A stretch of 64,000 bases of DNA from Alphaproteobacteria bacterium (GCA_965214705.1 OZ243972.1:3264001-3328000); one strand, 5' to 3'. Positions 1-64,000 are shown, counted from the stretch's first letter. The notes: generated from the letters alone by a model not told the origin. Numbers and translations are program-made.

Positions 1-182
1 CAGGCTCGCGCCATGAGGTGTGAAGGTGGACGGAATACGGCGGGCAGGAGGAACGGGCGCTCCGCAATCGAGAGGCTGCCCCTCGCAGTCTGCAACGCGA
101 TCGTCGTCCCAGCGGAATCCCGCCGATCCCGCTTAATCCCGGCGTGGCCCACAACAAAATTAAGGTTGTTTGTCCCACGTGA
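1..182 (+). repeat. Diverged copy C of a dispersed ~300-bp element, truncated by the window edge and inverted relative to copies A and B
   Basis: The reverse complement of 113-180 (gtgggacaaacaaccttaattttgttgtgggccacgccgggattaagcgggatcggcgggat) matches 42698-42760 (gtgggacaaaaccaactttaattttgcgggacgcaccgggattaggcgggataggtgggag). Start context caggctcgcgccATG (1-15) matches caggatcgcgagATG (copy A) and gaggattgcgccATG (copy B) read on the minus strand. Confidence 0.7.
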
Positions 183-196
183 GACGCGGGAGGGGT

Positions 197-226
197 GGTT
201 GCGCCCTGCCCGCGCAACCCTATAGT
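197..226 (+). promoter_or_regulatory. Putative sigma70 promoter of mnmA (TTGCGC-N16-TATAGT) overlapped by an 8-bp inverted repeat
   Basis: TTGCGC at 199-204 and TATAGT at 221-226; GGTTGCGC-N7-GCGCAACC at 197-219; ATG lies 7 nt after the -10 box. Confidence 0.5.
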
Positions 227-233
227 GCGCGCC

Positions 234-1415
234 ATGCTCACAAAGACCCTCGATCTCGGCCTCGCCAAGCCGCGCCGCGAGACGCGCGTGGTCGTCGCCA
301 TGTCCGGCGGCGTCGATTCGTCCGTCACCGCAGCCCTGCTGGCGGAGGCGGGCTACGAGGTGGTCGGCATCACGCTCCAGCTCTATGCGGCGGGCGGTCC
401 GCGGGCGCGCCCTGGCGCCTGTTGCGCCGGGGAGGACATCTACGACGCCCGCCGCGTCGCGGACCGGCTCGGAATCCGCCATTACGTGCTCGACTACGAG
501 GCGCGCTTCAAGGAGGCGGTGATCGACGATTTCGCTGACTCCTACCTGCGCGGCGAGACGCCGATCCCCTGCGTGCGCTGCAACGAGCGGGTGAAGTTTC
601 GCGATCTGCTGGCGCTCGCCCGCGACCTCGGCGCGGACGCGCTCGCCACCGGCCACTATGTGCGGCGCGTGGCGGGGCCGAAGGGACCCGAGCTGCACCG
701 GGCGGTCGATGGCGCCAGGGACCAGAGCTACTTTCTCTTCGCCACCACGCGGGAGCAGCTTGAGTTCCTGCGCTTCCCCTTGGGCGACATGCCGAAGGAG
801 CAGGTGCGGGCGCAAGCCCAGCTGCTCGGCCTCGCCGTCGCGGACAAGCCGGACAGTCAGGATATCTGCTTCGTGCCCTCCGGCCGCTATGCCGGCGTGA
901 TCGAGCGGCTGCGCCCCGGCGCTGCCGAGCCGGGCACTATCGTGGACGAGGCGGGCCGGGTGCTCGGCCGCCACGAGGGCATCATCCACTACACCGTGGG
1001 CCAGCGCCGCGGCCTCGGCATCGCGGCGCCCGAGCCGCTCTACGTGCTCGCGGTCGATGCCGAACGCCGCGCGGTCGTGGTGGGCCCGCAGAGGGCGCTG
1101 CTGCGCGACCGCGTGTTCACCGGCCCGCTCGCCTGGATCGGCGGCGACGCGCCCGTGCCCGGCGAGGCGCGGGCGGTGGTGGCGCGGCTCCGCTCCAGCC
1201 ATCCCGGCGCGCCGGCGTGGCTGGTGCGCGGCGCCGACGGCACCGCCGAGGTTAGGCTGGAGAAGCCGGAGCCCGCGACCGCGCCGGGGCAGGCGTGCGT
1301 CCTCTATGACGGCGACCGCGTGCTCGGCGGCGGCTGGATCACCGGCACCGGGCGGAGCGCGGCGCTTGCCGAACGCGGCGGGCACACCGAGCCAGCCGCG
1401 TTGGCCGCCGCCTGA
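234..1415 (+). CDS. mnmA: tRNA-specific 2-thiouridylase MnmA
   Basis: [49 protein letters not shown] and PGQACVLY motifs. Confidence 0.97.
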
Positions 1416-23188: not shown

Positions 23189-24619
23189 GTGTTTGCCGCA
23201 TCGCGCCTGAAACGAAGGGGCTCTAGCGCCGACTACTGGCCGGGCTTCGTCGACCTGATGTCGACGCTGCTCCTGGTGATGATCTTCCTGCTCGTCGTCT
23301 ACATGCTGGCGCAGTACTTCCTGCAGCGGACCCTGTCCGAGGAGACCGAGGCGAAGGACGACCTCAACGCCCAGCTCAACAGTCTCGACGAAACGCTCGC
23401 CCTTGAGCAGCAGGCCAACGCGGATCTCAGGATCAATATCGCCCAGCTCGCGGATCAGCTTCAGAGCTCGCTTTCGGTTCGGGACCAGCTCATCGCCGAG
23501 CTTTCGATGATCACCGGCGAGCGCGACACGCTCCAGCTGCGTCTCAGGGAGATGACGGGGGAGGGGCAGTCCGCGCTCGCCGAAGCAGCCCAGGCCTCCA
23601 TCAGGGCGGATGCCGGCGAGGAGAAGGTCAAGGTCCTGCTTTCCGACGTCGAGCGCCTGCGCCGCGACATCGATGCGCTGAACGCGGTGCGCCGGGATCT
23701 CGAGTCCAAGGTCGGGATAATGGCGGCAGCGCTGATCGAGAGCCGAGGCGAGCTCGGCCAGAGCGAGGAGGAGACGGCAGCCGTGCGGGCCGATCTCTCG
23801 GCGCTGCGCGACACCACGGCTGAGCTCGAAGCACGCCTCTCCGACGAGCAGGAGCGCACGGTGCTCGCCCAGCGCACGCTGGAGGAGCGGGAAATCCGCC
23901 TCGCCGAGGTGCAGGCCCTTCACCTCGCGGCCCAGTCCTCGTACGACAGCACCCAGGCGGCACTGGACGAGAACCGCCAGCTCAGCGCGCGCCAGCGCGA
24001 CCAGATCGCCGTGCTCAACCAGCAGATCGACGCGCTGAGGGCGCAGCTCGGGCGCGTCGAGCAAGCCCTGCAGATCTCGGAGCGCAAGACCCAGGAACAG
24101 GACGTGACGATCGCCAACCTGGGCCAGCGCCTCAATATGGCGCTTGCCGCCAAGGTGGAAGAGCTCGCCGCCTATCGCTCCGAGTTCTTCGGCCGGCTCC
24201 GGGAGGTGCTCAGCGACCGCCGCGACTTCACCATCATCGGCGACCGCTTCGTCTTCCAGTCCGAGGTCCTGTTCGCCCCCGCCTCCGACGAGCTGGGCCC
24301 GGAAGGTCACGACAAGTTGGCGAAGTTTGCGCAGGTCCTCAGGGACGTGATGGTTCAGATTCCGTCTGATCTGCCCTGGATCCTGCAGGTCGACGGCCAC
24401 ACCGACAGCCGGCCGATACAGACGGCCCGCTTCCCCTCCAACTGGGAGCTCTCGGCGGCGCGCGCGATCTCGGTGGTGAACTTCCTCATCGCCCTCGGCA
24501 TCCCGCCCGCGCACCTGAGCGCCGCCGGCTACGGCGAGTTCCAGCCCCTCGACGCACGCGAGGACGAGATCGCCTATCGCCGCAACCGCCGCATCGAGCT
24601 CAAGCTGACTCAGCGTTAG
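23189..24619 (+). CDS. Peptidoglycan-binding OmpA/MotB-like coiled-coil protein
   Basis: WPGFVD TM motif, long coiled coil, YRSEFFG, DGHTD, NWELSAARA and NRRIE. Confidence 0.9.
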   Translation: MFAASRLKRRGSSADYWPGFVDLMSTLLLVMIFLLVVYMLAQYFLQRTLSEETEAKDDLNAQLNSLDETLALEQQANADLRINIAQLADQLQSSLSVRDQLIAELSMITGERDTLQLRLREMTGEGQSALAEAAQASIRADAGEEKVKVLLSDVERLRRDIDALNAVRRDLESKVGIMAAALIESRGELGQSEEETAAVRADLSALRDTTAELEARLSDEQERTVLAQRTLEEREIRLAEVQALHLAAQSSYDSTQAALDENRQLSARQRDQIAVLNQQIDALRAQLGRVEQALQISERKTQEQDVTIANLGQRLNMALAAKVEELAAYRSEFFGRLREVLSDRRDFTIIGDRFVFQSEVLFAPASDELGPEGHDKLAKFAQVLRDVMVQIPSDLPWILQVDGHTDSRPIQTARFPSNWELSAARAISVVNFLIALGIPPAHLSAAGYGEFQPLDAREDEIAYRRNRRIELKLTQR

Positions 24620-24730
24620 AGCGAGTCCGTCTTTGACGGACTCGCGACAGGCCGCGACCGCGGCCCGCCGCTCCTGCGGCGCCCTCGCGGAGGCGCCGGC
24701 CGTAGGCCGGCTGCCGTGAGCGACAAATGC
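24617..24730 (+). mobile_element. MITE-like palindromic element, TAGAGC-ended family (partial copy)
   Basis: tagagcgagtccgtctttgacggactcgcgacaggccgcg...gccggctgccgtgagcga is nearly identical to 49690-49866; it begins in the TAG stop of the upstream gene. Confidence 0.85.
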
Positions 24731-26955: not shown

Positions 26956-27019
26956 GTCTCGCACGCGCGAAGCGTCGTGCGAGCGAAACCAAGAGTCCCG
27001 AACGCCTGACTTCCCCCAC

Positions 27020-27049
27020 CGTCATGGCCAGACTCGTTCCGGCCATCCA
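27020..27049 (+). repeat. Alphaproteobacterial REP arm (cgtcatggcc...ggccatcca)
   Basis: Same family as 45802-45895 and 49539-49642. Confidence 0.7.
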
Positions 27050-27114
27050 TGTCCCGCGCGTCTGAGGCTCGTGTGCCGAAGGGTCATGTGCCCAAGAGCG
27101 GCCTTGTGTCTCGT

Positions 27115-27408
27115 CGGCCCGGTGGGATTATCCCAAAAGTTAATTTTAGGCGGCCTATTCCGGCCCACTCCGGCCCAAAGTGGCCCAAGGTGGTCCGAGG
27201 CGGGCGGCCCAAGGTGGCCCAAGGTCGCCCACGCGACAAAATAATCGCAACCACGGAAGCAGAGGCCCGCCTGCCCATCGATCTTGCTTGCCGTGACCCG
27301 CTCGCTTTCGCACTGCGTCGCGCGGATACACGCGCGGGAAAATAATCGAACCATCTCGCGATCCTGACGCAGTCACCCCGCCCTGTGCACCGCACCATAG
27401 TCCGGGGA
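27115..27408 (-). repeat. Copy A of the dispersed ~300-bp structured element
   Basis: 27261-27407 aligns without gaps to 42838-42984 (25 mismatches in 147 nt by hand count); cggtggga...ttaatttt end motif; 10-bp ggcccaaggt-type repeats at 27162-27231. Confidence 0.85.
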
Positions 27409-27435
27409 GTCGGGAGGGGAGGAGTCCCACCATGT

Positions 27436-33381: not shown

Positions 33382-35442
33382 ATGACTGCCCGGCTTGCCG
33401 CGGACATCGGCGGTACCTTCACTGACCTGGTGCTGCTGGATCCCGGCGGTGGCGTGCATGTCGCAAAGACCCTGTCGACGCCGGGCGACTTCAAGGAAGG
33501 CGTGCTGAGCGGCGTCGAGAGAATCCTGTCGGATGCCGGAGAGGCAAGGGGCCAAGAAATTGCGCTCGCCGATGTCGACTACTTCGTGCATGGCGCGACC
33601 GTCGTGCTCAACGCACTGCTGGAGCGAAAGCTGCCGCAGGCTGCTCTGGTGACCACGGCGGGGTTTCGGGACGTGCTGGAGATCATGCGCACCAACAACC
33701 CGCGCATGTACGACCTCAAGTGGATCAAGCCGAAGCCCATCATCCCGCGCCATCTGCGCTTCGAGGTCGCCGAGCGCGTCCGTCACACCGGCGAGGCGCT
33801 GTGTGCGCTGGACGAGGCCGGCACCCGCGAGGTGGCCCGCCGGATCAAGGCGCTCGGCATCCACTCCGTCGCGCTCTGCTTCCTCCATGCCTATGCCAAC
33901 CCGGACCATGAGCGCCGCGCCCGAGAGATCATTCTGGAGGAGCACCCGGAGGCGCACGTCACCATCTCCTCCGATGTCGCGAGCGAGCTCAGGGAATTCG
34001 AGCGCACCTCGACGGTCGCGATCAACGCCAGCACGATCCCGATCATCTCGGCCTATCTGGACGGACTGTCGCAAGCGCTCATCGACCGGGGCCTGGAGCG
34101 GGAGCTCTTCGTGATGCAGTCGAACGGCGGCGTCATCACGAGCCGGACCGCCCGGTCGCTGCCGGTCCGCACCGTGATGTCGGGTCCGGCCGGAGGCGTC
34201 GTCGGCGCGCAGTTCATCGCGAACCGCATGGGCTTGCGCGACGTGGCGACCATCGACATCGGCGGCACCAGCAGCGACATGGGCGTCATATCCGACGGCC
34301 TGGCTCGGACCGTGGATCAGAGCGCGGTCGAGGGCTGGCCGATCATGGCGCCCACCATCGAGATCCTGGCGATCGGGGCCGGCGGCGGCAGCATCGCCTG
34401 GGTCGATTCAGGCGGCGCGCTGCGCGTGGGGCCGCAGAGCGCGGGCGCCCGGCCCGGCCCCGCCTGCTACGGCCTCGGCGGGAAAGAGCCCACCGTCTCC
34501 GATGCCTGCGTCACCCTCAACCGGCTGAACCCGGATTACTTCCTCGCAGGCGAGATGGTGCTCGACCGCGCGGCTGCCGAGCGCGCCATCCGCGAGCGGA
34601 TCGCCGAGCCCCTCGGAATGGAGATCGCCGAAGCCGCCGAAGGCATTCTCCGGGTCGTCACCGCCAACATGAACAAGGCAATCCGCTCGATCCTCATCGC
34701 GCGAGGCTTCGATATCCGCCAGTTCACGCTCATGGCGTTCGGCGGCGCGGGCGGCATGGTGGCAGGCGAGCTGCTGCGCATCGGCGACGTGCAGCGGCTG
34801 GTCGTGCCGAGCAATCCCGGCGCCGTCTCGGCCATCGGGATGCTGGCCACCGACCTCCGGCACGACTTCGCACAGTCTTCGGTGCAGTCGTTCGGCGAAG
34901 TCGAGTGGGGTGAAGTCCGGCATGCCCTGCGTCATCTTCGAACGCTCGGCGCGGAACGGCTCCAAGCCGACGGCGTGGATGAAGCGGCGATGCACTTCGG
35001 CGACGCGCTCGACCTGCGCTACGTCGGACAGGACTACTACCTCCGCGTCTACGTCGATATCGACGACCTCGACGGCGAGCGCATCCGGTCCGACTTCGAT
35101 CGGCTGCACGAGCACACCTACGGCTTCGCCAATCCGGAGTTCGAGGTCGAGATGGTCAACGCGCGGGTCTTCGCGATCGGCGCGTTCGAGCGGCCGCAGC
35201 TACCGGAGATCGATACCCGTCAAGCTCCTCACGGCCCGCTCACGCCGAAGGCGCGTCGTCCGGTGTTCTTCGACGGTGCGTTCGTGGAGACGGACATCTA
35301 CGATGTAACGGCGCTCTGCGCCGACGATGCCACCGCCGGTCCTTGCGTCATCGAGGACCCGCGCTCGACAATTGTCGTCATGCCGGGCCAGAGCGCCGCG
35401 GTCGATCGGTTTCGCAATCTATCGATCGAGGTCGCGGCTTAG
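33382..35442 (+). CDS. Hydantoinase/oxoprolinase subunit A (N-methylhydantoinase A-like)
   Basis: DIGGTFTD, EFERTST, MQSNGG, SGPAGG, DIGGTSSD, GAGGGS and GPQSAGARPGPACY motifs. Confidence 0.93.
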   Translation: MTARLAADIGGTFTDLVLLDPGGGVHVAKTLSTPGDFKEGVLSGVERILSDAGEARGQEIALADVDYFVHGATVVLNALLERKLPQAALVTTAGFRDVLEIMRTNNPRMYDLKWIKPKPIIPRHLRFEVAERVRHTGEALCALDEAGTREVARRIKALGIHSVALCFLHAYANPDHERRAREIILEEHPEAHVTISSDVASELREFERTSTVAINASTIPIISAYLDGLSQALIDRGLERELFVMQSNGGVITSRTARSLPVRTVMSGPAGGVVGAQFIANRMGLRDVATIDIGGTSSDMGVISDGLARTVDQSAVEGWPIMAPTIEILAIGAGGGSIAWVDSGGALRVGPQSAGARPGPACYGLGGKEPTVSDACVTLNRLNPDYFLAGEMVLDRAAAERAIRERIAEPLGMEIAEAAEGILRVVTANMNKAIRSILIARGFDIRQFTLMAFGGAGGMVAGELLRIGDVQRLVVPSNPGAVSAIGMLATDLRHDFAQSSVQSFGEVEWGEVRHALRHLRTLGAERLQADGVDEAAMHFGDALDLRYVGQDYYLRVYVDIDDLDGERIRSDFDRLHEHTYGFANPEFEVEMVNARVFAIGAFERPQLPEIDTRQAPHGPLTPKARRPVFFDGAFVETDIYDVTALCADDATAGPCVIEDPRSTIVVMPGQSAAVDRFRNLSIEVAA

Positions 35443-35472
35443 GCCGCGCGGCGTGCCGGATCAGGGGGCACC

Positions 35473-37296
35473 ATGGCCAAGGCAGTGCATCTCGTTGACG
35501 TGGCGCAGGTGGAAACGGTCGATCCGGTCACGCTCGAGGTCGTTCGCGCCGGGCTGCATTCGATCATCAGCGAGATGTCGATCACGCTGAACCGGACCTC
35601 CTATTCGACGATCCTCCGTGAGATCAACGACTACAGCTGCGTCCTGTTCGACAGCCGGGGCCGGCTCCTGGCCCAGGCCGAGGGCATCCCGATCTTCAAC
35701 GGCAGCATGAACTTCGTGGTCGATGCGGTGATCGAGAAGTTCCCGCTCACCGAGATGGAGGAGGGAGACATCTTCCTCTCCAACGATCCCTACACCGCCG
35801 GCGGTACGCACAAGAACGACATCAACGTCGTCATGCCGATCTTTTGGCAGGGCGCGCTGGTGATGCTGGCGGCCAACAAGGCGCATCACCTGGACATCGG
35901 CGGCAAGGACCCGGGCAGCTGGTCGGCGGATGCCCGCAACACCTATCAGGAGGGCCTCTGCCTTCCCGCTCTGAGGCTCGCGCGGCGCGGCGTGATGAAT
36001 GAGGAGCTGGTCGAGGTCCTGATGGCCAACCTGCGCACACCGACGCTCTCCCGTGGCGACTTCTCGGCTCAGATCGCGGCGCTGAAGACGGCGGAGCTCC
36101 GCACCCACGAGTGGCTGGAGAAGAATGGGGCCGATGCCCTGACCCGGACGGCGGACGCGCTGCTGGACCACGGCGAACGTGTCGTCCGTGCGGCGATCGA
36201 GCGGATTCCCGACGGCGTCTACAAGGCATCCGGCTTCGCAGATGGGGACGGCGTCTCCGACGAGCCCATCCCCATCGCGGTCACCGTCACGGTCGACGGC
36301 AGCGACATCCACATCGACTACGCTGGCAGCGGCGCCCAGCGAGAGGGCTCGGCGGGGAACGCCCATTGGGTCGTGACGGTGTCCATGACACGCCAGGCGA
36401 TGATGTTCTTCACCGACACCGCGCTCGGCGGCAACGAGGGCTCGTACCGGCCAATCCACATCTCCGCGCCGGCAGGTTGCGTCTTCAACCCCGAGTACCC
36501 CGCACCGGTGACGACCGGCATGGGCAACATGGGCACGCGGCTGATCGAGCTGATCTTTCAGGCGCTGGCCGACGTCATTCCCGAAGAGGTTATCGGCGGC
36601 ACTTTCGGCTGTTTCAGTTGCATGACCCTCGGCGGCAAGGACCCTGAAACAGACGGCGAGTTCGTGCACTTCGAGTGCTATTCCGGCGGCTGGGGCGGGC
36701 GCCATCATGCGGACGGAAACAGCGCGACCGTCTCGCTCGGCAGCGGCGATGCCTACAACATTCCGGTCGAGGTGATGGAGACCACCACGCCGATCCTGCT
36801 CTGCGAGAAGTTCGCCCTGCAGGAGGGCTCCGCCGGCGCCGGCAGGCATCGCGGCGGCTTCGGCACCGAGATCGACTACCGGATGATGGGCGAGGCCGAA
36901 CTCGCCATCGCCCTGGATCGCGAGACCTTCAAACCCTACGGTCTGTTCGGCGGGCTGGAAGGGCAAGGCAGCGAGCTCCTGGTCGAGCCCGGCACGCCGT
37001 CGGAAGAGTTCTACGTCCGCGCGAGCGGCGTGAAGGTGGCCGAGGGCGCGCTCGTCCGCCACCGGACGGCCGGAGGGGGCGGCTACGGCCCACCGGCCGA
37101 GCGCGACCCGGCCCTGGTTGCGGACGATTGCCTGAACGGACTGATCACCATTGAGGATGCGCGCGACCTTTATGGCGTGGCGATCGATCCCGGCACCTTC
37201 GCGCCGGACCTCGACGCCACGGCCGCTCTGCGACAGGCCCAGCGAGGACAGAGTGGGTGCTCGCCTCCGATTTCCGAGGGTGAGCGGACGCAGTGA
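35473..37296 (+). CDS. Hydantoinase B/oxoprolinase subunit B
   Basis: DPVTLEVV, RTSYS..LRE..DYSC, NDPY.AGGTH.ND, HHLDIGG, QEGL, GAGRHRGG and GGGGYGPP.ER motifs. Confidence 0.93.
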   Translation: MAKAVHLVDVAQVETVDPVTLEVVRAGLHSIISEMSITLNRTSYSTILREINDYSCVLFDSRGRLLAQAEGIPIFNGSMNFVVDAVIEKFPLTEMEEGDIFLSNDPYTAGGTHKNDINVVMPIFWQGALVMLAANKAHHLDIGGKDPGSWSADARNTYQEGLCLPALRLARRGVMNEELVEVLMANLRTPTLSRGDFSAQIAALKTAELRTHEWLEKNGADALTRTADALLDHGERVVRAAIERIPDGVYKASGFADGDGVSDEPIPIAVTVTVDGSDIHIDYAGSGAQREGSAGNAHWVVTVSMTRQAMMFFTDTALGGNEGSYRPIHISAPAGCVFNPEYPAPVTTGMGNMGTRLIELIFQALADVIPEEVIGGTFGCFSCMTLGGKDPETDGEFVHFECYSGGWGGRHHADGNSATVSLGSGDAYNIPVEVMETTTPILLCEKFALQEGSAGAGRHRGGFGTEIDYRMMGEAELAIALDRETFKPYGLFGGLEGQGSELLVEPGTPSEEFYVRASGVKVAEGALVRHRTAGGGGYGPPAERDPALVADDCLNGLITIEDARDLYGVAIDPGTFAPDLDATAALRQAQRGQSGCSPPISEGERTQ

Positions 37297-42690: not shown

Positions 42691-42985
42691 CGGCGCGGTG
42701 GGACAAAACCAACTTTAATTTTGCGGGACGCACCGGGATTAGGCGGGATAGGTGGGAGATGTCGCGTACGTCCGGAGGGACGTGCGCGCGGTAGATAGAG
42801 TCGCGGGCGTGGTAACAACGTCCCGCACGCGAAACCAAGAGGCGCGCACACCCATCCGTTTTGCTCGCCGAGACCCGTTCGCTCTCGCACTGCGTCGCGC
42901 GGATACGCGCGCGGGAATGTGATTGACGCATGGCGCAATCCTCACGCAGTCACCGCGCCCTGTGCACCGCACTATAGTCTGGGGT
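42691..42985 (-). repeat. Copy B of the dispersed ~300-bp structured element
   Basis: Core matches copy A as described above; gggat-N5-gggat-N4-gggag repeats at 42735-42758 are shared with copy C. Confidence 0.85.
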
Positions 42986-43132
42986 GTCGCCCGCGCCTGA
43001 AGGGTCGCAGGCGCGTCAGACAGGATCGTGCGCGCGGCATATTGGGGCACGCGCGGGGCGGGGCTACGGCCGACAAGCCCCCTGACGTAGACAAGGAACG
43101 GCGGAACCCGGTCGAGGGGCAAGGAGGGCACG

Positions 43133-43584: not shown

Positions 43585-45744
43585 CCCAAGTTGGCACTTT
43601 TCCGCTGCCTGTGTTCCCTATTGGTTTGATTCAACGCGATATTTTTCTCGGTCGATTCCAACATGGCCCCACATTTTGTGAGATTCTGTCAGCTCATCAG
43701 ACGGGTCCTCGTGCGGTGGATGGCGGGGTCCACGCCCGCCGCCGAGGAGATTGCGGCAACCTCGGCGGCCGGGCGCGTGTCCTGGCGGTTGACGATCAAG
43801 GTGCCGTCGGTCTGGCGCAGGCGCGTGGTGATCCGCACCCAGGTCCGCATGCTCTCGCGGATCGACGCCCAGCACTTGTGGATGCCGCGCGCGGCCAGCC
43901 GGGTACGGATCAGATGCACGGCGTGGTAGGCCAGCACGGCGATCAGCAGGTGGGCCGCGATGCGCCGGTCGAGCTGGTGCCAGATCGGGCGAAGGCCGAG
44001 CTCGGATTTCAGGCTCCGGAATGTCGCCTCGATATCCGTGATCCGCCAGTACGTCCGCAGGACCGTCTCGATGTCCCAGTCGACGTGGCTGGTGCGCAGC
44101 ACATAGGCACCGGCGCCCTCATCGGCCTCGTCGTATCGCGGCCTGCGCTTGAAGCGCACGGCGGTGGCATTGGGGCCGGTTTTCGCCCTCTCGACCGTGA
44201 TCTCGTAGTGCCTGGCGACGGCGGAGAAGCGCTGCTTGAGGCGGCCTATGCTCTCCAGCACCTTGTCGTAGCGCTTGAGGCGGCCCTTGACCGCAAGGCC
44301 GCCGTGGAGCCTTTCCAGCGCCGCCTCGAAGCGGTTCCGCCTCAGGCCGATGATCGCGTTCTCGGCCTTCTTCTTGCCCTCGCTGACGACGTAGAGCCGC
44401 GCCTCGCCGTCCTCGCTGGCAAGCCGCCAGGCCCGCACCTCGTGGCGCGCGCTGGTGATCAGCAGGGCCTCGGGTCCGCCCTCGGGCGGCGCAGGCCTGG
44501 CACCGCGGCTGACCGCGATCCAGTCGTAGCCCTGCTCGCCCAGCCACGCGATGTTTTTCTCGGTGGCGATGCCCGCGTCCATGACCACCGTGGGCTTCGG
44601 CGCCGTGCCGCCGCACACCGCCTCGAGCCGCGCCAGCGCCTCGTGCAGCGTGCCCGGCTCGCTCACGTTGCCCGGCAGGATCTCGCAACTGCGCGGGAAG
44701 CCCGCGCCGTCGAGCGCCAGCGCCAGCGTGATGAGGGGACAGTCGTCGCGCTTCTGCTTGGAGCGCCCGAACCTGGGAAGCTCGCCGCCCGTGTGGCCGT
44801 GGTAGTGGACGTTGGTGAGATCGTAGAAGGCGATCGTCTCGGGCAGGTCGAGCAGTGCGCGCTCACGGTTGAACAGCTCCCGCTGGATGGCGGCGCGGTG
44901 GCGCCAGAGCAGGTCGCCGATGCGGTAGAGCGTCTTGCGCCGCAGCGCCTTGCGGTCGCCCTCCAGGCCCAGGAGCTCGGCGGCCGCGCTGTCGTGGCGG
45001 AGCCAGCGGCTGGTATCACGCTCGCTGGCGGGATGGACCATCCTGGCGACGATCAGCGCGCTGGCGATGCGCCCGTCGCGGCCCTTGATGTCGAGGCCGT
45101 GGAGGATTTCGGCGAAGCCGAGGGCGTCGAGGGCCTTGAGGCACAGGCGCTCGCAGCCGACCGTGCGCGGGTTCTCGTGCTCCAGGGTATCGAGGTCGAC
45201 GGTGGCGATGTCGGGCTTGCGCGCCTCTTCCTGCATCGCCTCGACGCGGAACCCCCTGGCCCTGAGCTTGGCGACGATGTCCTCGGCTGCGGCCCGCACA
45301 TCCGCCTCGCCCTCGAACAGCGGCGGCTTGCCGTGAAGCAGCGCCTCGGCGAGTTCGGTGACGGCCTTCCACTTCTCGCGCGGCACCGGATAGTCGGTGC
45401 CGAGATTGAGCAGCGTCCTGTGGCGCACCTTGTCGCCGACGCGCTGGGCGAGCACGAGGCGATGGCTTCGGACCGGCTGGCCGGCCTTGTCGGTGTGTGT
45501 CCTGGTTGCCTTGATGTACATGGCGGCGCCGTTTCTGCGATGCCTGTTTCGCATACACGGCGTTCGCGGCATCTGGCAAGAGGGATATCGACTCAACTCC
45601 AAAGTCCTGGCCCCACAATTGGCTTCCAGGACCACGAATGGCAAATGTGGGTCTCAGGTGTCCTCCAACCCCAACATCTAGTGGTTCAGCGCCGCAAAAC
45701 TGGCTCGAACAGGCTCGGCTGGTCGGAAAAAGTGCCAACTTGGG
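43585..45744 (-). mobile_element. IS1634-family insertion sequence (copy 1)
   Basis: Terminal IRs CCCAAGTTGGCACTTTT (43585-43601) and AAAAGTGCCAACTTGGG (45728-45744); GTAA duplicated at 43581-43584 and 45745-45748. Confidence 0.9.
43689..45521 (-). CDS. IS1634-family DDE transposase
   Basis: FYDLTN, FGRSKQKRDD, VVMDAGI and IEATFRSLKSELGLRPIWH...I.AHLLIAVLAY motifs. Confidence 0.92.
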   Translation of the reverse strand: MYIKATRTHTDKAGQPVRSHRLVLAQRVGDKVRHRTLLNLGTDYPVPREKWKAVTELAEALLHGKPPLFEGEADVRAAAEDIVAKLRARGFRVEAMQEEARKPDIATVDLDTLEHENPRTVGCERLCLKALDALGFAEILHGLDIKGRDGRIASALIVARMVHPASERDTSRWLRHDSAAAELLGLEGDRKALRRKTLYRIGDLLWRHRAAIQRELFNRERALLDLPETIAFYDLTNVHYHGHTGGELPRFGRSKQKRDDCPLITLALALDGAGFPRSCEILPGNVSEPGTLHEALARLEAVCGGTAPKPTVVMDAGIATEKNIAWLGEQGYDWIAVSRGARPAPPEGGPEALLITSARHEVRAWRLASEDGEARLYVVSEGKKKAENAIIGLRRNRFEAALERLHGGLAVKGRLKRYDKVLESIGRLKQRFSAVARHYEITVERAKTGPNATAVRFKRRPRYDEADEGAGAYVLRTSHVDWDIETVLRTYWRITDIEATFRSLKSELGLRPIWHQLDRRIAAHLLIAVLAYHAVHLIRTRLAARGIHKCWASIRESMRTWVRITTRLRQTDGTLIVNRQDTRPAAEVAAISSAAGVDPAIHRTRTRLMS

Positions 45745-45801: not shown

Positions 45802-45895
45802 CGTCATGCCCGGACTTGATCCGGGCATCTCTCTCGCGCAACGCACTGTAAGGAAAAGAAAAACGTGGATGGCCGGGTCAAGCCCGGCCATGACG
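45802..45895. repeat. REP doublet (REPIN-like)
   Basis: Inverted arms cgtcatgcccggacttgatccgggcatc and gatggccgggtcaagcccggccatgacg. Confidence 0.85.
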
Positions 45896-45929
45896 AGGTG
45901 GGTGGGTTCGCGCCCTTCTCCCGCTTAAA

Positions 45930-48021
45930 CCGAACTTCCGTTAGCATCTGATTGCCGATCTGGCCGGATTTTGCCTGTTTCCGCCCTTTCTGCGCAGTTT
46001 AGCGCCCGGTTTGGCGCGAAATTCCCGAAATGATCGCCGAAACCGCCGCGATTCGGCGCTCCAGCGCTGGATCACGCCGTCCCGGCGCATCCACCAAAAC
46101 CTGAATACTAGTCAGTAGATAGTTTTCTCGTTACGATAATTGCTCCGCATTCCCAAGCCTTTCCGATATGATTGCCGCGATTCGCTAGGCAGATCGATAT
46201 GCACATCGAAACCACCCGGTCCGGAAACTCCCGCTGCCACCTCCTCAGACAGTCCTACTGGCAGGACGGAAAACCCAAGAAGCGCACCCTGTGCAACCTC
46301 TCCGCCCTCCCGGAACACGCCATCGAAGCCCTCAAACGCGCCCTCAAGCGCGGACCCGCCCTCAATCCCGACAGCGCCGACGTCGAACTGCGCGCCAGCC
46401 GGGCGCACGGCGCCGTCAGCGCCGTTCTCGGCACCCTTCGCGACATCGGCCTCGACCGCGTCATCTTCCACCGGCCCGATCGCCGCAGGGCCCTCGTCAT
46501 CGCCATGATCGTCGCCCGCCTGATCCGGCCCGGCGCCAAGCTGCGCGTCGAGCGCGAACTGGGAGCGGCCGGCACAACCACCCTCGCCGCCCTGCTCGGC
46601 GTCGAAGGCGTCAGCGTCGACGAACTCTACGCCGCCATGGACTGGCTGGGCGCGCGACAGGGCGCGATCGAGCGCAAGCTCGCCCGGCGCCATCTCGGAG
46701 AGGACGATCTCGTCCTCTACGACGTGTCCTCGAGCTACATGGAGGGCAACGCCTGCCCCATGGCGAAGCGCGGCTATTCGAGGGATCGCCGGGGCGACCG
46801 CCCGCAGATCGTCTACGGCCTCCTCTGCACCCGCGATGGCTGTCCGGTCTCGATCGAGGCCTTCGCCGGCAACACCGGCGACCCGATGACTCTGGCCAGC
46901 CAGGTGCGCAAGGTCCGCGACAGCTTCGGCATCCGGCGGGTGGTGTTGGTGGGGGACCGCGGCATGATCGCGCAGACCCGCATCGACCGCGACCTCGCGC
47001 CCAACGGCATCGACTGGATCACGGCGCTGCGCGCATCCTCGATCCGCAAGCTCGTCGACCGGGGGCATGTCACGCCCGGCCTGTTCGACACCTGGGGCCT
47101 CGCGCGGGTGACCACGCCGGACTATCCCGGCGAGAGGCTGATCGTCTGCTACAACCCGGTTCTGGCGGCCGAGCGCAAGCGCAACCGCGACGGGCTGCTC
47201 AATGCGACCGAGACGGACGCGCGCGATTTCGCCGCGCGCCACGCCGCCGGCGACATCGACCGCGACGAGTTGAACCGTCGGCTGGGAACCTTGCGCCGCC
47301 GCAAGATGGCCAAGCACTTCCGCTTCGAATTCGACGAGGGCAGCGGCACCTTCAGTTGCGAACGCGACCGGGCGTCGATCGACGCCGAGGCCGCCCTCGA
47401 CGGTCTCTACGTCATACGCACCAACGTGGACGAGGACGAGATCGAGGACGTCGAGGCGGTCCGCGTCTACAAGAGCCTGTCACGCGTCGAGCGCGCCTTC
47501 CGCTCGCTCAAGACGGTGTCGTTGCGGATCCGCCCGATCTTCCACTGGCGCGACGACCGAGTACGGGCGCATCTTCTGATCTGCATGCTGGCTTGGTATG
47601 TCGAGTGGCACATGCGCCGCAGGCTGGCGCCGCTGCTGTTCGCCGAGGAGGACGGAGCGCCGCTGTCCGCGAACCCGGTGGCGCCGCCGGAACGCTCGGA
47701 AAAGGCCCGGCGCAAGGACAAGCGCCGAAAGACGGATGATGGACTTGCGGTGTGCGACTTCCGCGATCTCCTCGGCCATCTCGGCACGCTTGCTGCCACT
47801 GAGATCGCCACCGGAACCGACTTCGCCGTGCCCGCCCTGACCAAGCCGACCGAACTGCAGGAAAGGGCGTTCGCATTGCTCGGGCTGCGGCCCCATCCTG
47901 CGCCCGCGCTCACCGAAAAGGGGATGACCACCGCCAAACCTGTCCAGTAATCGTCGCTTCGAAACTCGCCGAAACCCCTGCCGCACAACGGTTCTTTGAC
48001 TATCCCACACTGGAAGTTCGG
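45930..48021 (+). mobile_element. IS1634-family insertion sequence (copy 2, different subgroup)
   Basis: IRs CCGAACTTCC (45930-45939) and GGAAGTTCGG (48012-48021); 6-bp duplication CTTAAA at 45924-45929 and 48022-48027. Confidence 0.92.
46199..47950 (+). CDS. IS1634-family DDE transposase
   Basis: LYDVSSSYMEG, GYSRD, VLVGDRGM, LDGLYVIRT and YKSLSRVERAFRSLKT..LRIRPIFHW..RVRAH motifs. Confidence 0.93.
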   Translation: MHIETTRSGNSRCHLLRQSYWQDGKPKKRTLCNLSALPEHAIEALKRALKRGPALNPDSADVELRASRAHGAVSAVLGTLRDIGLDRVIFHRPDRRRALVIAMIVARLIRPGAKLRVERELGAAGTTTLAALLGVEGVSVDELYAAMDWLGARQGAIERKLARRHLGEDDLVLYDVSSSYMEGNACPMAKRGYSRDRRGDRPQIVYGLLCTRDGCPVSIEAFAGNTGDPMTLASQVRKVRDSFGIRRVVLVGDRGMIAQTRIDRDLAPNGIDWITALRASSIRKLVDRGHVTPGLFDTWGLARVTTPDYPGERLIVCYNPVLAAERKRNRDGLLNATETDARDFAARHAAGDIDRDELNRRLGTLRRRKMAKHFRFEFDEGSGTFSCERDRASIDAEAALDGLYVIRTNVDEDEIEDVEAVRVYKSLSRVERAFRSLKTVSLRIRPIFHWRDDRVRAHLLICMLAWYVEWHMRRRLAPLLFAEEDGAPLSANPVAPPERSEKARRKDKRRKTDDGLAVCDFRDLLGHLGTLAATEIATGTDFAVPALTKPTELQERAFALLGLRPHPAPALTEKGMTTAKPVQ

Positions 48022-49538: not shown

Positions 49539-49642
49539 CGTCATGCCAGGCCCCCGGATCAAGTCCGGGGGTGTTCCGCGCATCCATATCGACCCGGTGC
49601 GGCGGCACGACGTGGATGGCCGCATCAAGTGCGGCCATGACG
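49539..49642. repeat. REP doublet with a nested REP hairpin
   Basis: cgtcatgcc[aggc-ccccggatcaagtccggggg-tgtt]ccgcgcatcca ... tggatggccgcatcaagtgcggccatgacg. Confidence 0.75.
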
Positions 49643-49689
49643 AGGTGGGGTTAACGCGTGAGGGCATGCGAACGGCTGTCGGGGGGCGG

Positions 49690-49866
49690 TAGAGCGTGTC
49701 CGTCTTTGACGGACACGCGACAGGCCGCGACTGCGGCCCGCCGCTTATGCGGCGCCATCGCGCGCCCGCGCGCGTGGACGCGCGACGCGGAGGCGCCGGC
49801 CGTAAGGCCGGCTGCCGTGAGCGATAAAGAAGCCGGAGCGTTTCCGTGCAAAACGGAAACGCTCTA
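49690..49866 (+). mobile_element. MITE-like palindromic element, TAGAGC family (complete copy, about 177 bp)
   Basis: Terminal IR tagagcgtgtccgt / acggaaacgctcta (13 of 14 match); the right end supplies the TAG stop of the acyl-CoA dehydrogenase gene. Confidence 0.88.
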
Positions 49867-57320: not shown

Positions 57321-59192
57321 ATGGAGGCAGTGGTCGAGCGCGGCGGGGCGGAAGGCGCAGCCAGCACAGCCGCCGGGGCCAACGACGCGGGCGGGGGCGA
57401 TCCCTTCGGCTTCGAGCTCTTCCGCAACGCCATCTTCGCCATCGCGGACGAGATGGCGCTCACCGTCTGCCGCACCACCTATTCCGGCGTGCTGCGCGAC
57501 AACATGGATTTCTCCACCGCGCTTACCGACGGCGACGGCCGCCTGATCGCGCAGGGGCTCACCCTGCCGGGCCATCTCGGCTCGGTGCCCACCGCCATCC
57601 AATCGGTGCTGCGCCACTACGGCGACGACATGCACCCCGGCGACATCTTCGTGATGAACGACCCGTTCGACGGCGGCATGCACCTGCCCGACATCTTCAT
57701 CTTCAAGCCGATCTTCGACGGGGACGAGCGCCTCGCCTTCGCCGCCACGGTCTGCCACCACGCCGATGTCGGCGGCCGGGTCGCGGGCTCCAATGCCTCG
57801 GATTCCACCGAGATCTACGCGGAAGGCGTGCGCATCCCGCCGCTCCGCCTCTACGACGCCGGCAAGCGCAACGAGACCCTCTTCGCGATCCTCGAGAAGA
57901 ACGTGCGCCTGCCGGTCAAGCTCTTCGGCGACCTGCGTGCCCAGCTTGCCGCCTGCCACATCGCCGAGCGCCAGTTCCTCGACCTGGTGCGCCAGCACGG
58001 CGCCGAGGCCACGCGCTTCTACCTGCGCGAGATCATCGACTATGCCGAGCGGCTGACGCGCGCGGCGCTCCGCGAGCTGCCCGACGGCGAGGCGAGCTTC
58101 GAGGACTGGATCGACGACGACGGCATCGACCGCGGCAAGCCGATCAGGCTGTTCGTGACCTTCCGCAAGGAGGGCGACAGCCTCCACGCCGACTGGGCGG
58201 GGTCCTCGCCGCAGGTCAAGGGCGCGATCAACGGCACGCTGTCGTGGACCAAGGCTGCGACCTACACGGCGGTGCGCTCGGTCCTGCCGCCGGGCATCCC
58301 GGACAACGAGGGCGTCTTCCGCGCCATCACCGTCACCGCGCCGCCCGGCACCATCACCAACGCGGTGCTGCCGGCGGCGTGCGCGGCGCGCGGGCTCACC
58401 GGCTTCCGCATGGTGGACTGCGCCTTCGGCGCGCTCGCCATGCTGCTGCCGGACAAGGTTTTCGCGGCCTCCGACGGCGGCAACACGGGCATCACCATCG
58501 GCGGCTACGACGCCGAGCGTAAGCCCTTCATCTACGTCGATTTCACCTGCGGCACCTGGGGCGCCAGGCCCTGGGCCGACGGCCTCGAAGGCAACTCCAA
58601 CATCCTCGCCAACATGGCGTCGCAGTCGGTGGAGGTGATCGAGACCGAACAGCCGCTGCAGATCCTCTCCTACGAGTTCGTGCCCGACCGCGCCGGCGCC
58701 GGCCGCTACCGGGGCGGCACGCCCTACCGCCGCGACTATCGCTTCCTGGAGGCAGAAGGCCTGCTCCAGGTGCGGGCCGACCGGCACACCTTCAGGCCCT
58801 ACGGGCTCTATGGCGGGAGCCCCGGCCAGCCCTCGCGCAACGTGCTGAACCCGGGGCCGGACGAGCAGCCGCTGCCGAGCAAGCTCACCGAGACCATCCT
58901 GCGCGGCGACGTCTTCCGCCACGAACTCGCGGGCGCGGGCGGCTGGGGCGACCCGCTGGAGCGCGCCCCGCACGCCGTGCTGCGCGACCTCCGCAACGAG
59001 CTGATCGGCGATGCCACCGCGCGCAACGACTATGGCGTGATTGTCGACCGGGGCGCGTGGCAGGTCGATCACGCCGCGACCGACGCGCGCCGGGCGGCGC
59101 TGCGGGCCGCGCGGGGGTGGACTGCGCTACCCGCCGTCTCGCGCGGCGAGATGCCCGAGACGGGGAGCGGCGCGCCCGAGAGCGGGGCGTGA
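57321..59192 (+). CDS. Hydantoinase B/oxoprolinase subunit B
   Basis: DPFGFELFRN, DFSTA, NDPFDGGMHLPD, HHADVGG, GAGRYRGG and GAGGWGDPLER motifs. Confidence 0.93.
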   Translation: MEAVVERGGAEGAASTAAGANDAGGGDPFGFELFRNAIFAIADEMALTVCRTTYSGVLRDNMDFSTALTDGDGRLIAQGLTLPGHLGSVPTAIQSVLRHYGDDMHPGDIFVMNDPFDGGMHLPDIFIFKPIFDGDERLAFAATVCHHADVGGRVAGSNASDSTEIYAEGVRIPPLRLYDAGKRNETLFAILEKNVRLPVKLFGDLRAQLAACHIAERQFLDLVRQHGAEATRFYLREIIDYAERLTRAALRELPDGEASFEDWIDDDGIDRGKPIRLFVTFRKEGDSLHADWAGSSPQVKGAINGTLSWTKAATYTAVRSVLPPGIPDNEGVFRAITVTAPPGTITNAVLPAACAARGLTGFRMVDCAFGALAMLLPDKVFAASDGGNTGITIGGYDAERKPFIYVDFTCGTWGARPWADGLEGNSNILANMASQSVEVIETEQPLQILSYEFVPDRAGAGRYRGGTPYRRDYRFLEAEGLLQVRADRHTFRPYGLYGGSPGQPSRNVLNPGPDEQPLPSKLTETILRGDVFRHELAGAGGWGDPLERAPHAVLRDLRNELIGDATARNDYGVIVDRGAWQVDHAATDARRAALRAARGWTALPAVSRGEMPETGSGAPESGA

Positions 59193-61273
59193 GCGGCTGG
59201 CGCATCGGAGTCGATATCGGCGGCACCTTCACCGATATCGTTCTCCTCGGCGCGGACGGCACCGTCGCCACCCGCAAGATCTCCTCCAGCGTCGACGACT
59301 ATGCCCGCGCCATCATGGAGGGGATCGCTTCCCTCGTCGCCGAGCACGCCATCGACGGCGCCGAGATCGCCGAGATCACGCACGGCACCACCGTCGCCAG
59401 CAACGCGCTGCTGGAGCGCAAGGGCGCGCGTACCGGCCTGATCGGCACGAAGGGTTTTCGGGACATCCTGGAGATCCGCAATCTCAGGATGCCCCGGCTC
59501 TACGACCTCGCGTGGGAGAAGCCGCCGCCCCTGGTCGAGCGCTACCTGCGCGCCGTGGTGGACGAGCGCATCGACGCCCGCGGCAACGTGCAGACGGCCC
59601 TCGATGCCGACGAGGCGCGCGCCGTGGTCGACCGGCTGCTTGCAGAGGGGGTGGAGGCGATCGCCGTCTGCCTCATCAACGCCTTCAACAATCCGGTGCA
59701 CGAGCGGGCGCTGGAGGCCATCGTGCGCGAAAAGGCGCCGGGCTGCACCGTCTGCATCAGCTACGACGTCCTGCCCGAGATCAAGGAGTACGAACGCACC
59801 TCCACCACGGTGATCAACACCTACATCAGCCCGATCGTGCGCACCTATCTGGAGCGGCTGCGCCAGGCGATCCTGGAGCGCTGCCCCAAGGCCCACCTGC
59901 TCATCATGCAGTCCAACGGCGGGTTGACCTCGGCGGACGAGGCGGCGCGGCGCCCGGTCAACATCGTGGAATCCGGGCCGGCCGGCGGGGTGGTGGGCGC
60001 GCTCGCCATGGCCGGCGACATCGGCCAGGACGATCTCGTCACCTTCGATATGGGCGGCACCACGGCCAAGGCGGCGCTGATCGAGGGCGGCGTCATCAGC
60101 CGCTCCGCCGAGTTCCAGGTGGGGGGTGGCATCCTCACCGGCTCCCGGCTCTTGACCGGCGCCGGCTACCTGGTGCGGATGCCCGCCATTGACCTCGCCG
60201 AGGTGGGCGCGGGCGGCGGCTCGCTCATCGCCATCGACGCCGGCGGTTCCATGCAGGTGGGGCCCGAGAGCGCGGGCGCCGAGCCCGGCCCCGTGTGCTA
60301 CGACCAGGGCGGAACCGCGCCCACCATCACCGACGCCAACGTCGCGCTCGGCTACCTCAATCCGGACTACCTCGTGGGCGGGGCGCTCCCCATCGACGCT
60401 GCCAAGGCGATCGCTGCCCTGCGCACGCAGATCGCCGAGCCGCTCGGCGTCTCGGTGGAGGAGGCGGCCTACGGCGCGCACCGGATCGTGGCCTCCAACA
60501 TGATCCGCGCCATCCGCGCGGTCTCGACCGAGCGCGGGCGCGACCCACGCGGCTACACGCTGGTCGCTTTCGGCGGCAACGGGCCGGTGTTCGGCGCCGC
60601 GATGGCGCAGGCCCTCGATATCCGGCGGGTGGTCGTGCCGCAGGCACCGGGTCTCTTCTCCTCGTTCGGGTTGCTCACGGCGGATGTGGAGCACCACCTC
60701 TCGCGCACCTTCCGGGAGCTTCTGCGGGGCATCGACAAGGCGGCGCTCAACGAGCGCTGGGACGCGCTCGCGGAAGACGCGCGGCAGAGGCTCGCCGCCG
60801 ACGGCTACGGCGGGGAGGCCGGCCAGATCGAGCGTCACGCGAGCCTGCACTACCAGGGGCAGACCTACGAGCTCACCGTGCCGGTGCCCGACGGCCCGCT
60901 CGACGATGCCGCGCTGGCTGCGCTGGAAGAGGCCTTCCACGCGGAGCACGAGCTCACCTACGGCCACCGCGCGGGGTCGGAGGAGCCGGTGGAGCTGGTG
61001 ACGCTACGCGTGCTGGGCCGGGGCCGCAGGCCCACGGCGCCGCCGCCCCGCATCGAGCATGGGGCAGGGGCGGCGCAGGAAACCGCCGCGCGGCGCGCCT
61101 ATTTCGGCCCGGAGCACGGCTGGCGCGAGGCCGCCGTGATCGGCCGTGCCGACCTTGCGGAGCGCCGCGAGGGGCCGCTGATCGTCGAGGAGTACGACGC
61201 CACCTGCGTCGTGCCGCCCGGCGTCTCCGCCGCGCTCAACGACGCCGGCTGTATCGTCCTCGAGGTGGGCTAG
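59189..61273 (+). CDS. Hydantoinase/oxoprolinase subunit A
   Basis: GVDIGGTFTD, HGTTVASNA, EYERTSTT, ESGPAGG, DMGGTT and GAGGGS motifs; GTGA overlap with subunit B. Confidence 0.93.
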   Translation: MSGWRIGVDIGGTFTDIVLLGADGTVATRKISSSVDDYARAIMEGIASLVAEHAIDGAEIAEITHGTTVASNALLERKGARTGLIGTKGFRDILEIRNLRMPRLYDLAWEKPPPLVERYLRAVVDERIDARGNVQTALDADEARAVVDRLLAEGVEAIAVCLINAFNNPVHERALEAIVREKAPGCTVCISYDVLPEIKEYERTSTTVINTYISPIVRTYLERLRQAILERCPKAHLLIMQSNGGLTSADEAARRPVNIVESGPAGGVVGALAMAGDIGQDDLVTFDMGGTTAKAALIEGGVISRSAEFQVGGGILTGSRLLTGAGYLVRMPAIDLAEVGAGGGSLIAIDAGGSMQVGPESAGAEPGPVCYDQGGTAPTITDANVALGYLNPDYLVGGALPIDAAKAIAALRTQIAEPLGVSVEEAAYGAHRIVASNMIRAIRAVSTERGRDPRGYTLVAFGGNGPVFGAAMAQALDIRRVVVPQAPGLFSSFGLLTADVEHHLSRTFRELLRGIDKAALNERWDALAEDARQRLAADGYGGEAGQIERHASLHYQGQTYELTVPVPDGPLDDAALAALEEAFHAEHELTYGHRAGSEEPVELVTLRVLGRGRRPTAPPPRIEHGAGAAQETAARRAYFGPEHGWREAAVIGRADLAERREGPLIVEEYDATCVVPPGVSAALNDAGCIVLEVG

Positions 61274-63746: not shown

Positions 63747-63888
63747 GCATTTTCTCGCTCACGGCAGCCGGCCTGCGGCCGGCGCCTCCGCGTCGCGCGT
63801 CCACGCGCGCAGGCGCGCGATGGCGCCGCATAAGCGGCGGGCCGCGGTCGCGGCCTGTCGCGCGTCCGTCAAAGCCGGACACGCTCTA
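63747..63888 (-). mobile_element. MITE-like palindromic element, TAGAGC family (inverted, lacking the right end)
   Basis: Its reverse complement matches 49690-49830 almost base for base. Confidence 0.88.
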
Positions 63889-64000
63889 GCGTCGAGCGGC
63901 CAAATCCCTTGTCATGGCAAGTAACTGTTGCCTTCCCCTTGTCAGCCGACCCCGATTGACCTAGCGTGCCTTGACGTTCCGCGCCAGCCGATTACGTGAT

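Follow-up and report, generated by a model that had tools for sequence, protein, structure and literature searches.

In phage Mu, the target of the C protein is an imperfect dyad of 16 bp whose centre lies at -43.5 and which overlaps the -35 region of the four late promoters; these promoters have recognisable -10 and poor -35 hexamers (PMC2582627). Leaderless mRNAs are widespread in bacteria (PMC8459731). As for packaging, the SPP1 pac is described in PMC4737164 as containing direct repeats, promoters and the beginning of terS, with neighbouring HTH motifs of the terminase about one DNA turn apart and wrapping bendable DNA. In the same text, AT runs alternating with GC favour wrapping in SPP1/SF6-type systems, and its authors propose a link between transcription and the initiation of packaging. 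The pac of P22 lies inside terS, and pac-like sites of the host (purF, minE) drive packaging of neighbouring host DNA (PMC11260489). According to a review (PMC11841831), known GTAs appear to need no packaging initiation site, known alphaproteobacterial GTAs are not Mu-like and have small terminases without a DNA-binding domain, and the head and packaging genes of RcGTA-type agents are distributed over several loci, hundreds of kb from one another and under common control, some of these loci holding only one or two genes. How GTAs and domesticated heads choose the DNA that they package is an open question. A literature search, with subscription journals outside its coverage, found no description of elements such as those reported here or of a Mu-like or pac-using GTA.

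The 64-kb stretch of DNA analysed here as a whole (the window) carries ordinary chromosomal genes, namely mnmA, rnd, acnA, ccmABC, accA, aroB, rpmE, glmS, glmU, eno, transporters and two IS1634 transposases, and no terminase, portal, capsid or Mor/C-family activator gene was found in the 64 kb. The family under study has three copies, A and B on the minus strand and C on the plus strand. A and B have in common an ungapped stretch of 152 nt with 83% identity (27261-27412 against 42838-42989; repeat family D1). A 20-mer taken from the start of this stretch, ATGGTGCGGTGCACAGGGCG, has two sites in the 64 kb when up to three mismatches are allowed, in A and B only, where 0.03 matches are expected by chance and none of 100 shuffles reached two. 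A motif scan for an AT box followed by TCCCAC found A and B only (0.17 expected), and C has an AT box and TCCCAC at 156-178. At the end of each of the three copies stand phased 10-nt repeats, then an AT box and TCCCAC. From window position 1 onward C reads CAGGCT-CGCGCC-ATG, which corresponds to the -10, the discriminator and the start codon of the family promoter; since it opens at position 1 with the -10 region, its upstream part lies outside the window, which makes C a third complete copy truncated by the window edge. Further copies of the promoter or array module were absent from the 64-kb window in the nhmmer promoter profile search and the motif scans. The features are as follows.

27120-27405, minus strand: element A, whole (promoter, leader, variable body, 10-nt array, AT box, terminal unit)
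27390-27405, minus strand: 16-bp near-palindrome of A, CCGGACTATGGTGCGG, the proposed activator site; self-hits of the profile on the reverse strand show the dyad
27384-27389, minus strand: -35-like TGCACA of A, with 4/6 bases matching the TTGACA consensus
27361-27366, minus strand: -10-like CAGGAT of A, previously read as an SD
27352-27354, minus strand: conserved ATG of A, the proposed leaderless start (+1)
27151-27231, minus strand: array of 10-nt direct repeats of A, unit CC[A/G]C[C/T]TTGGG, ending GGCCGGAATAGGCCGC
27140-27147, minus strand: AT box of A, AAAATTAA
27122-27128, minus strand: terminal unit of A, ATCCCAC, within a small palindrome, TGGGATAATCCCA
42698-42982, minus strand: element B, whole; homology with its orthologue L048 runs from about 42984, at most 2 nt off the 5' edge of the palindrome
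42967-42982, minus strand: palindrome of B, CCAGACTATAGTGCGG
42938-42943, minus strand: -10-like GAGGAT of B, with the ATG at 42929-42931
42724-42757, minus strand: array of B, four ATCCC[G/A]-type units at 10-nt spacing
42715-42722 and 42698-42704, minus strand: AT box and terminal GTCCCAC of B
1-178, plus strand: element C, cut by the window start, with the -10 CAGGCT at 1-6 and the ATG at 13-15
107-141, 156-163 and 172-178, plus strand: array, AT box and GTCCCAC of the 3' part of C
54-106, plus strand: remnant of the terS 5' coding end in C, about 18 codons

The initial annotation had described an unannotated multi-part family of three copies with phased repeats, distinct from REP, MITE and IS classes, and this description holds: the 152-nt stretch and the third copy make the family real, period-10 arrays lie at 27151-27231 (A) and 42734-42757 (B), terminal inverted repeats common to A and B and a transposase of the elements' own were both absent, and no Rfam family matched at the gathering or at permissive thresholds. 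Other repeats were seen in the window. A REP-like family of about 80-116 nt has direct and inverted copies that are 89-96% alike (24609-24727, 49686-49802 and 63751-63896; D4, I1-I3). A 40-nt hairpin repeat occurs three times (45863-45902, 49610-49649 and, inverted, 27013-27052; D17, I11), the last just downstream of A, and in relatives the bodies and flanks of elements are full of similar hairpins. Two paralogous pairs of caprolactamase/hydantoinase-like subunit genes (33382-37296 and 57321-61273) include one 140-nt stretch that is 73% alike (D2).

Relatives were retrieved by scanning genome contigs for the exact 17-mer GTGCGGTGCACAGGGCG, which has at least 115 loci. Among the matches listed, 19 of the at least 115 loci carry the extended motif, as established by blastn and reading of the flanks; the other 96 listed are bare 17-mer matches from unrelated phyla and served as controls. 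The 19 family loci, again among the matches listed, come from 12 assemblies, all of them Alphaproteobacteria or Rhodospirillales MAGs. The nhmmer promoter profile detected nothing beyond the copies already known, either in the window or among the 19 related loci. The plasmid collection had no blastn match to A, and the phage collection gave only chance-level matches (E >=2) to the promoter. Sorted by what follows the promoter, the family loci among the matches listed are these.

Element-like (9): L025, L028, L030, L038, L048, L071, L094, L109 and L114 (truncated)
Promoter before a small-terminase gene (3): L043, L062 and L058
Promoter before a portal gene (3): L008, by Pfam, and L100 and L115, from the resemblance of their ORF starts
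Promoter before a protease-capsid operon (2): L066 and L103
Promoter before ORFs that could be given no name (2): L083 and L113

The promoter was aligned in 18 non-redundant copies anchored on the start codon, leaving out L062, L103 and L114 as near-duplicates of L043, L066 and L028, respectively. In 18/18 copies the order is palindrome, TGCACA, 17 nt, xAxxxT, 6 nt (7 nt where the spacing is 25) and start codon. The 16-bp palindrome, CCG[G/C]ACCATGGTGCGG, is perfect in L008, L083 and L115 and has one to three asymmetric positions in the other copies, and TGCACA adjoins it directly. The dyad symmetry is also apparent from the promoter profile, which matches itself on the opposite strand (nhmmer). 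The -10 hexamer has A at -11 in 17 copies and T at -7 in 17, the exception being off by one base. The start codon is ATG in 17 of the aligned copies and GTG in L030, and it lies 24-25 nt past the 17-mer at all 20 sites reached by the sequence (ATG 19, GTG 1). Retrieval required an intact 17-mer, and the conservation of the promoter is therefore in part a product of it; the left half of the palindrome, however, is conserved although it is outside the search word, and its conservation is thus independent evidence.

Counting the A of the ATG as +1 puts the centre of the palindrome at -43.5, and the 5' module is better read as a promoter made of a palindrome and a weak -35 than as a "-10 box plus GCGGTGCACAGGGC". 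The TATAGT/TATGGT that had been taken for the -10 box is the centre of the 16-bp palindrome, and the supposed SD before the ATG is more likely the -10 hexamer, an SD-like word being present in only 7/18 promoter copies. The transcript is probably leaderless and would start at the A of the ATG; a start about 7 nt after TATAGT/TATGGT, near 27388 or 42965, as first suggested, is possible. A, B and C are very probably transcription units, since they have their promoter in common with phage head genes of relatives. A simple sigma-70 consensus scan found no promoter at A or B, as would be expected of an activator-dependent promoter, though this is not positive evidence for one, and a terminator scan found none at A and one weak terminator-like site inside B. 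A candidate hairpin pairing CAUGGUGCG with the start-codon region was rejected, as its 3' arm varies without compensation. The mnmA gene directly downstream of C, with TATAGT, 7 nt and ATG (window 219-236), looks leaderless too.

The genes behind the promoter in relatives encode head and packaging proteins. L043, L062 and L058 encode a Mu gp27-family protein (PF11985, 2e-25; phrog_426 'terminase small subunit', 1.4e-28), and this terS stands alone amid housekeeping genes. At L008 a large-terminase gene is followed by the promoter and then by Portal_Mu (1.6e-88), and at L066 the promoter precedes genes for a head maturation protease, a scaffold or decoration protein and the major head protein. 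The terS, portal and protease-capsid loci of the relatives are each flanked by housekeeping genes, and in the complete chromosome OY763937 the terS locus L058, at 2.77 Mb, and the portal locus L100, at 1.93 Mb, are separated by about 0.84 Mb. Neither tail nor lysis genes turned up in the exact-17-mer loci that were retrieved. These scattered one- to three-gene Mu-like head and packaging loci with a common promoter look like an undescribed Mu-type GTA-like regulon; by analogy, the pattern is that of a domesticated set of head and packaging genes spread over several loci, as in the GTAs covered by PMC11841831. One of the 12 assemblies has an element and head genes together (JAPPNV01, L109 with L043/L062) among the exact-17-mer matches listed, and the presence of head genes in the source genome of the window is inferred from the relatives. 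The locus L113 (OY763937, 2.68 Mb) has the promoter ahead of some 200 nt plus an AT-rich stretch; neither a 10-nt array nor a recognisable gene is present in its 617 nt, and it is possibly a third kind of module.

In 5/7 gene-linked copies (L008, L100, L066, L103 and L058) the conserved ATG opens a leader ORF of 12-20 aa whose stop overlaps the start of the gene (TGATG, GTGA, ATGA). This arrangement suggests leaderless initiation followed by translational coupling in the gene-linked copies. Searching phages by tblastn with the terS-like protein gave two DUF3486 matches of 34-37% identity; in the phage of the better match terS adjoins the large terminase gene with no array between them, so the array is not an ancestral feature of Mu-like terS. 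The terS-like protein had no matches among PDB sequences. The AlphaFold model of L058 TerS has a mean pLDDT of 64.9 and is confident only for residues 10-60, and a fold search with it gave no significant match (best E 0.9); with a model of such low confidence and no fold match, an HTH DNA-binding domain is not demonstrated.

The repeat arrays have 3-8 units at 9-11-nt spacing and come in two flavours, an ATCCC[G/A]-type in B, C, L048, L038, L025, L028 and L030 and a [G/T/A]GCC[A/G]-type in A, L109, L071 and L094, with a CCAC[T/C]T core common to some units of both. Three GGCCR words at 10-nt spacing occur six times in the window against 0.86 expected, four of the six in A. The array scan was positive in 9/11 elements of the window and the matches listed, L028 and L030 having only two clean units, and in 3/3 terS loci among the matches listed, at or just past the terS 3' end (L043 740-774, followed by GTCCCAC; L062; L058, degenerate). 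The same scan found none at L008 (portal) or L066 (capsid), against a background of 16 arrays in 807 kb from the 96 control loci. Resemblances of the units to replication-initiator boxes, cell-cycle regulator sites, IHF sites and transposon ends were considered, and none fits both repeat flavours.

Two further lines of evidence tie the elements to terS. Positions 54-106 of C align with the beginning of terS in both L058 and L043, with 73% identity over 108 nt to L058 (blastn, E 2.5e-8), and in A, B, L028 and L094 the leader aligns with that of the terS type and not with that of the portal or protease type. Given the terS remnant in C, the terS-type leaders and the arrays at terS, the elements amount to a terS locus minus its gene: A, B and C are, in all likelihood, non-coding, gene-less paralogues of a small-terminase (terS, Mu gp27-like) locus. 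An origin as the decayed remnant of a known gene, which the initial annotation had named as its own possible undoing, is borne out as far as the derivation from the terS locus goes; both non-coding ends of that locus are retained, which argues against plain decay.

We propose that the elements are gene-less paralogues of the terS locus with a late promoter co-regulated with head genes and with pac-like arrays, and put the probability of this whole account at about 0.35. A putative Mor/C-like activator would turn on the head genes, and the same late promoter would fire at each element, probably from the A of the ATG, with transcription entering the array. The array would be a pac-like landing site wrapped by a gp27-like small terminase, and packaging of chromosomal DNA into phage-derived heads would begin at the dispersed elements. 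That the arrays are pac-like terminase-binding sites is itself tentative, with precedent in described pac sites. Several points speak against this role: one genome has both flavours (A against B and C), so a single terminase would need to accept both; L028 and L030 have two clean units each; the true Mu-like phage has no array after terS; known GTAs appear to do without an initiation site; the window has no head genes; only one of the 12 assemblies has an element together with head genes among the matches listed; and a pac role alone gives no account of why the promoter is kept. A wider and more doubtful proposal is that of an undescribed GTA-like system of scattered Mu-like head genes that uses dedicated packaging-initiation modules at conserved intergenic sites, host DNA being packaged from defined, co-regulated starts.

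Comparison with orthologous loci bears on the age of the elements. A and L038 both have an ABC exporter on one side and an amidohydrolase on the other, with flanks of 89.5% and 92.8% identity; window positions 26959-27356, the body of A plus a spacer, are unalignable between them, and L038 has the other repeat flavour. The flanks of L025 and L028 are 89.5% and 84.9% identical, and their bodies are unalignable. B and L048 are 94.2% identical over 2131 nt, beginning at most 2 nt from the 5' edge of the palindrome; upstream of the start of this alignment, IS insertions are found in the window. In each of the three syntenic comparisons the site is filled in both genomes. These comparisons indicate that the sites are old and that the promoter is retained and an array remains present, the body between them turning over fast. 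A 24-nt tandem duplication was seen in the leader of relatives of both subfamilies (L048 3015-3040; L109 about 328-352), and A and B of the window are without it.

The most serious rival, which we nevertheless regard as unlikely, is that the elements are functionless, decaying duplicates of the terS locus, the gene having been lost by internal deletions and the ends looking conserved through gene conversion and search bias. Such decay would leave a terS fragment like that in C, bodies that are unalignable between close relatives with flanks about 90% identical, and units that vary in number and flavour; it is also in keeping with a search that favoured copies with an intact 17-mer and with the rarity of translated copies, two matches in 5.8 billion proteins. 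It sits poorly with the three loci in 64 kb and eight in relatives that keep both ends, promoter and array, and with the A/L038 pair, where the body has been swapped for another array-bearing body and not lost. The palindrome half that was not selected for, the A at -11 and the T at -7 are, moreover, kept equally in element and gene-linked copies. If inert, the elements would be an ordinary lineage-specific family of pseudogene remnants.

A late-expressed non-coding RNA, acting as a regulator or sponge that binds a protein or mRNAs through its repeated C-rich or G-rich motifs during particle production, would explain a dedicated promoter with no gene behind it, and repeated short motifs are reminiscent of protein-titrating RNAs. 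The fold of B is weakly more stable than shuffles (z -1.93), that of A is not distinctive (z -0.83), and in a consensus fold of the core of A, B, L048 and L109 none of 45 predicted pairs has a compensatory change, the covariation term being unfavourable (+1.75) for these four sequences. Rfam had no matches in the whole window at the gathering threshold and only two chance-level matches around A with E up to 10, both outside the element, and a tRNA/tmRNA scan found none. The body differs between orthologous loci, the two flavours are alike in neither composition nor strand bias, no terminator was found apart from the single weak terminator-like site in B, and the exact spacing of one DNA turn points to duplex DNA over RNA. 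We thus consider a functional RNA improbable, and the structured RNA that had first been suggested loses its footing with the missing covariation and the unalignable bodies. The idea of an expressed unit is supported by the promoter, which is that of the head genes in relatives; the structured RNA and leader peptide attached to it are not supported.

Binding of the array by a protein other than a terminase has a similarly low probability. The site could be an operator or roadblock of late transcription, a transcription-activated origin of the iteron type, or recombinase arm-type sites, and direct repeats phased at one turn beside an AT-rich box suit all three types. A promoter directed into the site would be in keeping with an origin activated by transcription, but no replication initiator or recombinase gene was found beside any of the 11 elements. 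Among genes, furthermore, the array is carried by terS only (3/3 loci), whereas the portal and capsid promoters are without it, a distribution more in line with the proposed terminase site.

A non-autonomous, MITE-like element moved in trans is very improbable. The dispersed family with its conserved multi-part build would suit such an element, as would the break in synteny with L048 at the 5' edge of B; the break, however, coincides with two IS1634 insertions. The corresponding transposase genes stand side by side, at 43689-45644 (minus strand) and 46172-47950 (plus strand), beyond the B/L048 synteny break; they are separate insertions, and no transposase belonging to the elements was found. 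No target duplication was seen flanking A and B, their common terminal inverted repeats are likewise lacking, and the copies are only 83% alike. Positions are conserved among species-level relatives, with no empty site in the three syntenic comparisons, and the mobilisation in trans that had been offered as one explanation is not supported, given this synteny and the want of ends or duplications. The elements resemble MITEs and REPs in being short, intergenic, dispersed and gene-less, and some element bodies contain REP-like hairpins. They differ from both in having no terminal inverted repeats or target duplications, in their low copy number and syntenic positions, and in carrying what looks like a working promoter together with an array of direct repeats.

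A small protein or leader peptide as the functional product, also raised in the initial annotation, is hardly plausible: every copy has its ATG at a set distance from the promoter, A and B each contain an open frame of 109-110 aa, and gene-linked promoters use coupled leader ORFs of 12-20 aa, but the ORF behind the ATG ranges from 21 to 149 aa and runs into the antisense of neighbouring genes, substitutions are evenly spread over codon positions (5/9/7 for B against L048; 12/16/14 for A against L109), Pfam and PHROG searches of the elements gave no match, likeness to the terS leader ORF is confined to the first few codons, and the two matches to the ORF of A among 5.8 billion proteins are both translated element copies. 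By these measures the elements are non-coding.

If the proposed packaging role is right, a host plants packaging starts in its own chromosome under the switch of the head genes, which would be a new design. Even without a pac function, the promoter with its 16-bp palindrome is a handle for finding scattered parts of Mu-like regulons in uncultured Alphaproteobacteria, and it offers a natural example of Mu-type late control joined to leaderless, translationally coupled expression.

Compared with the Mu late promoters, the promoters here likewise have a 16-bp dyad at -43.5 (if the A of the ATG is +1) over a poor -35, with a recognisable -10, and occur in several copies, each heading a block of late (head) genes. 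Unlike those of Mu, they have a dyad of unrelated sequence, are spread around a bacterial chromosome and in some cases head no gene; their transcripts are apparently leaderless with short coupled leader ORFs, and no activator gene was seen. The arrays are like the SPP1/SF6 pac in having repeats about one DNA turn apart, as candidate sites by sequence only. The SPP1/SF6 sites are present in single copy in a phage genome, whereas here there are several in a host chromosome with the coding part of terS deleted; the repeats here are 3' of the gene and not around its start, and there is no sequence similarity. The native site of P22 is in terS, and the arrays of the relatives are likewise at terS, at its 3' end. 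The pseudo-pac sites of hosts are chance look-alikes in host genes, by contrast with the dedicated intergenic modules described here, which have their own promoter, derive from terS and are conserved between species. As with RcGTA (PMC11841831; also PMC5026251), head and packaging loci lie far apart under a common promoter (here in the genes of the relatives alone); unlike in RcGTA, the gene set is Mu-like and candidate initiation sites are present.
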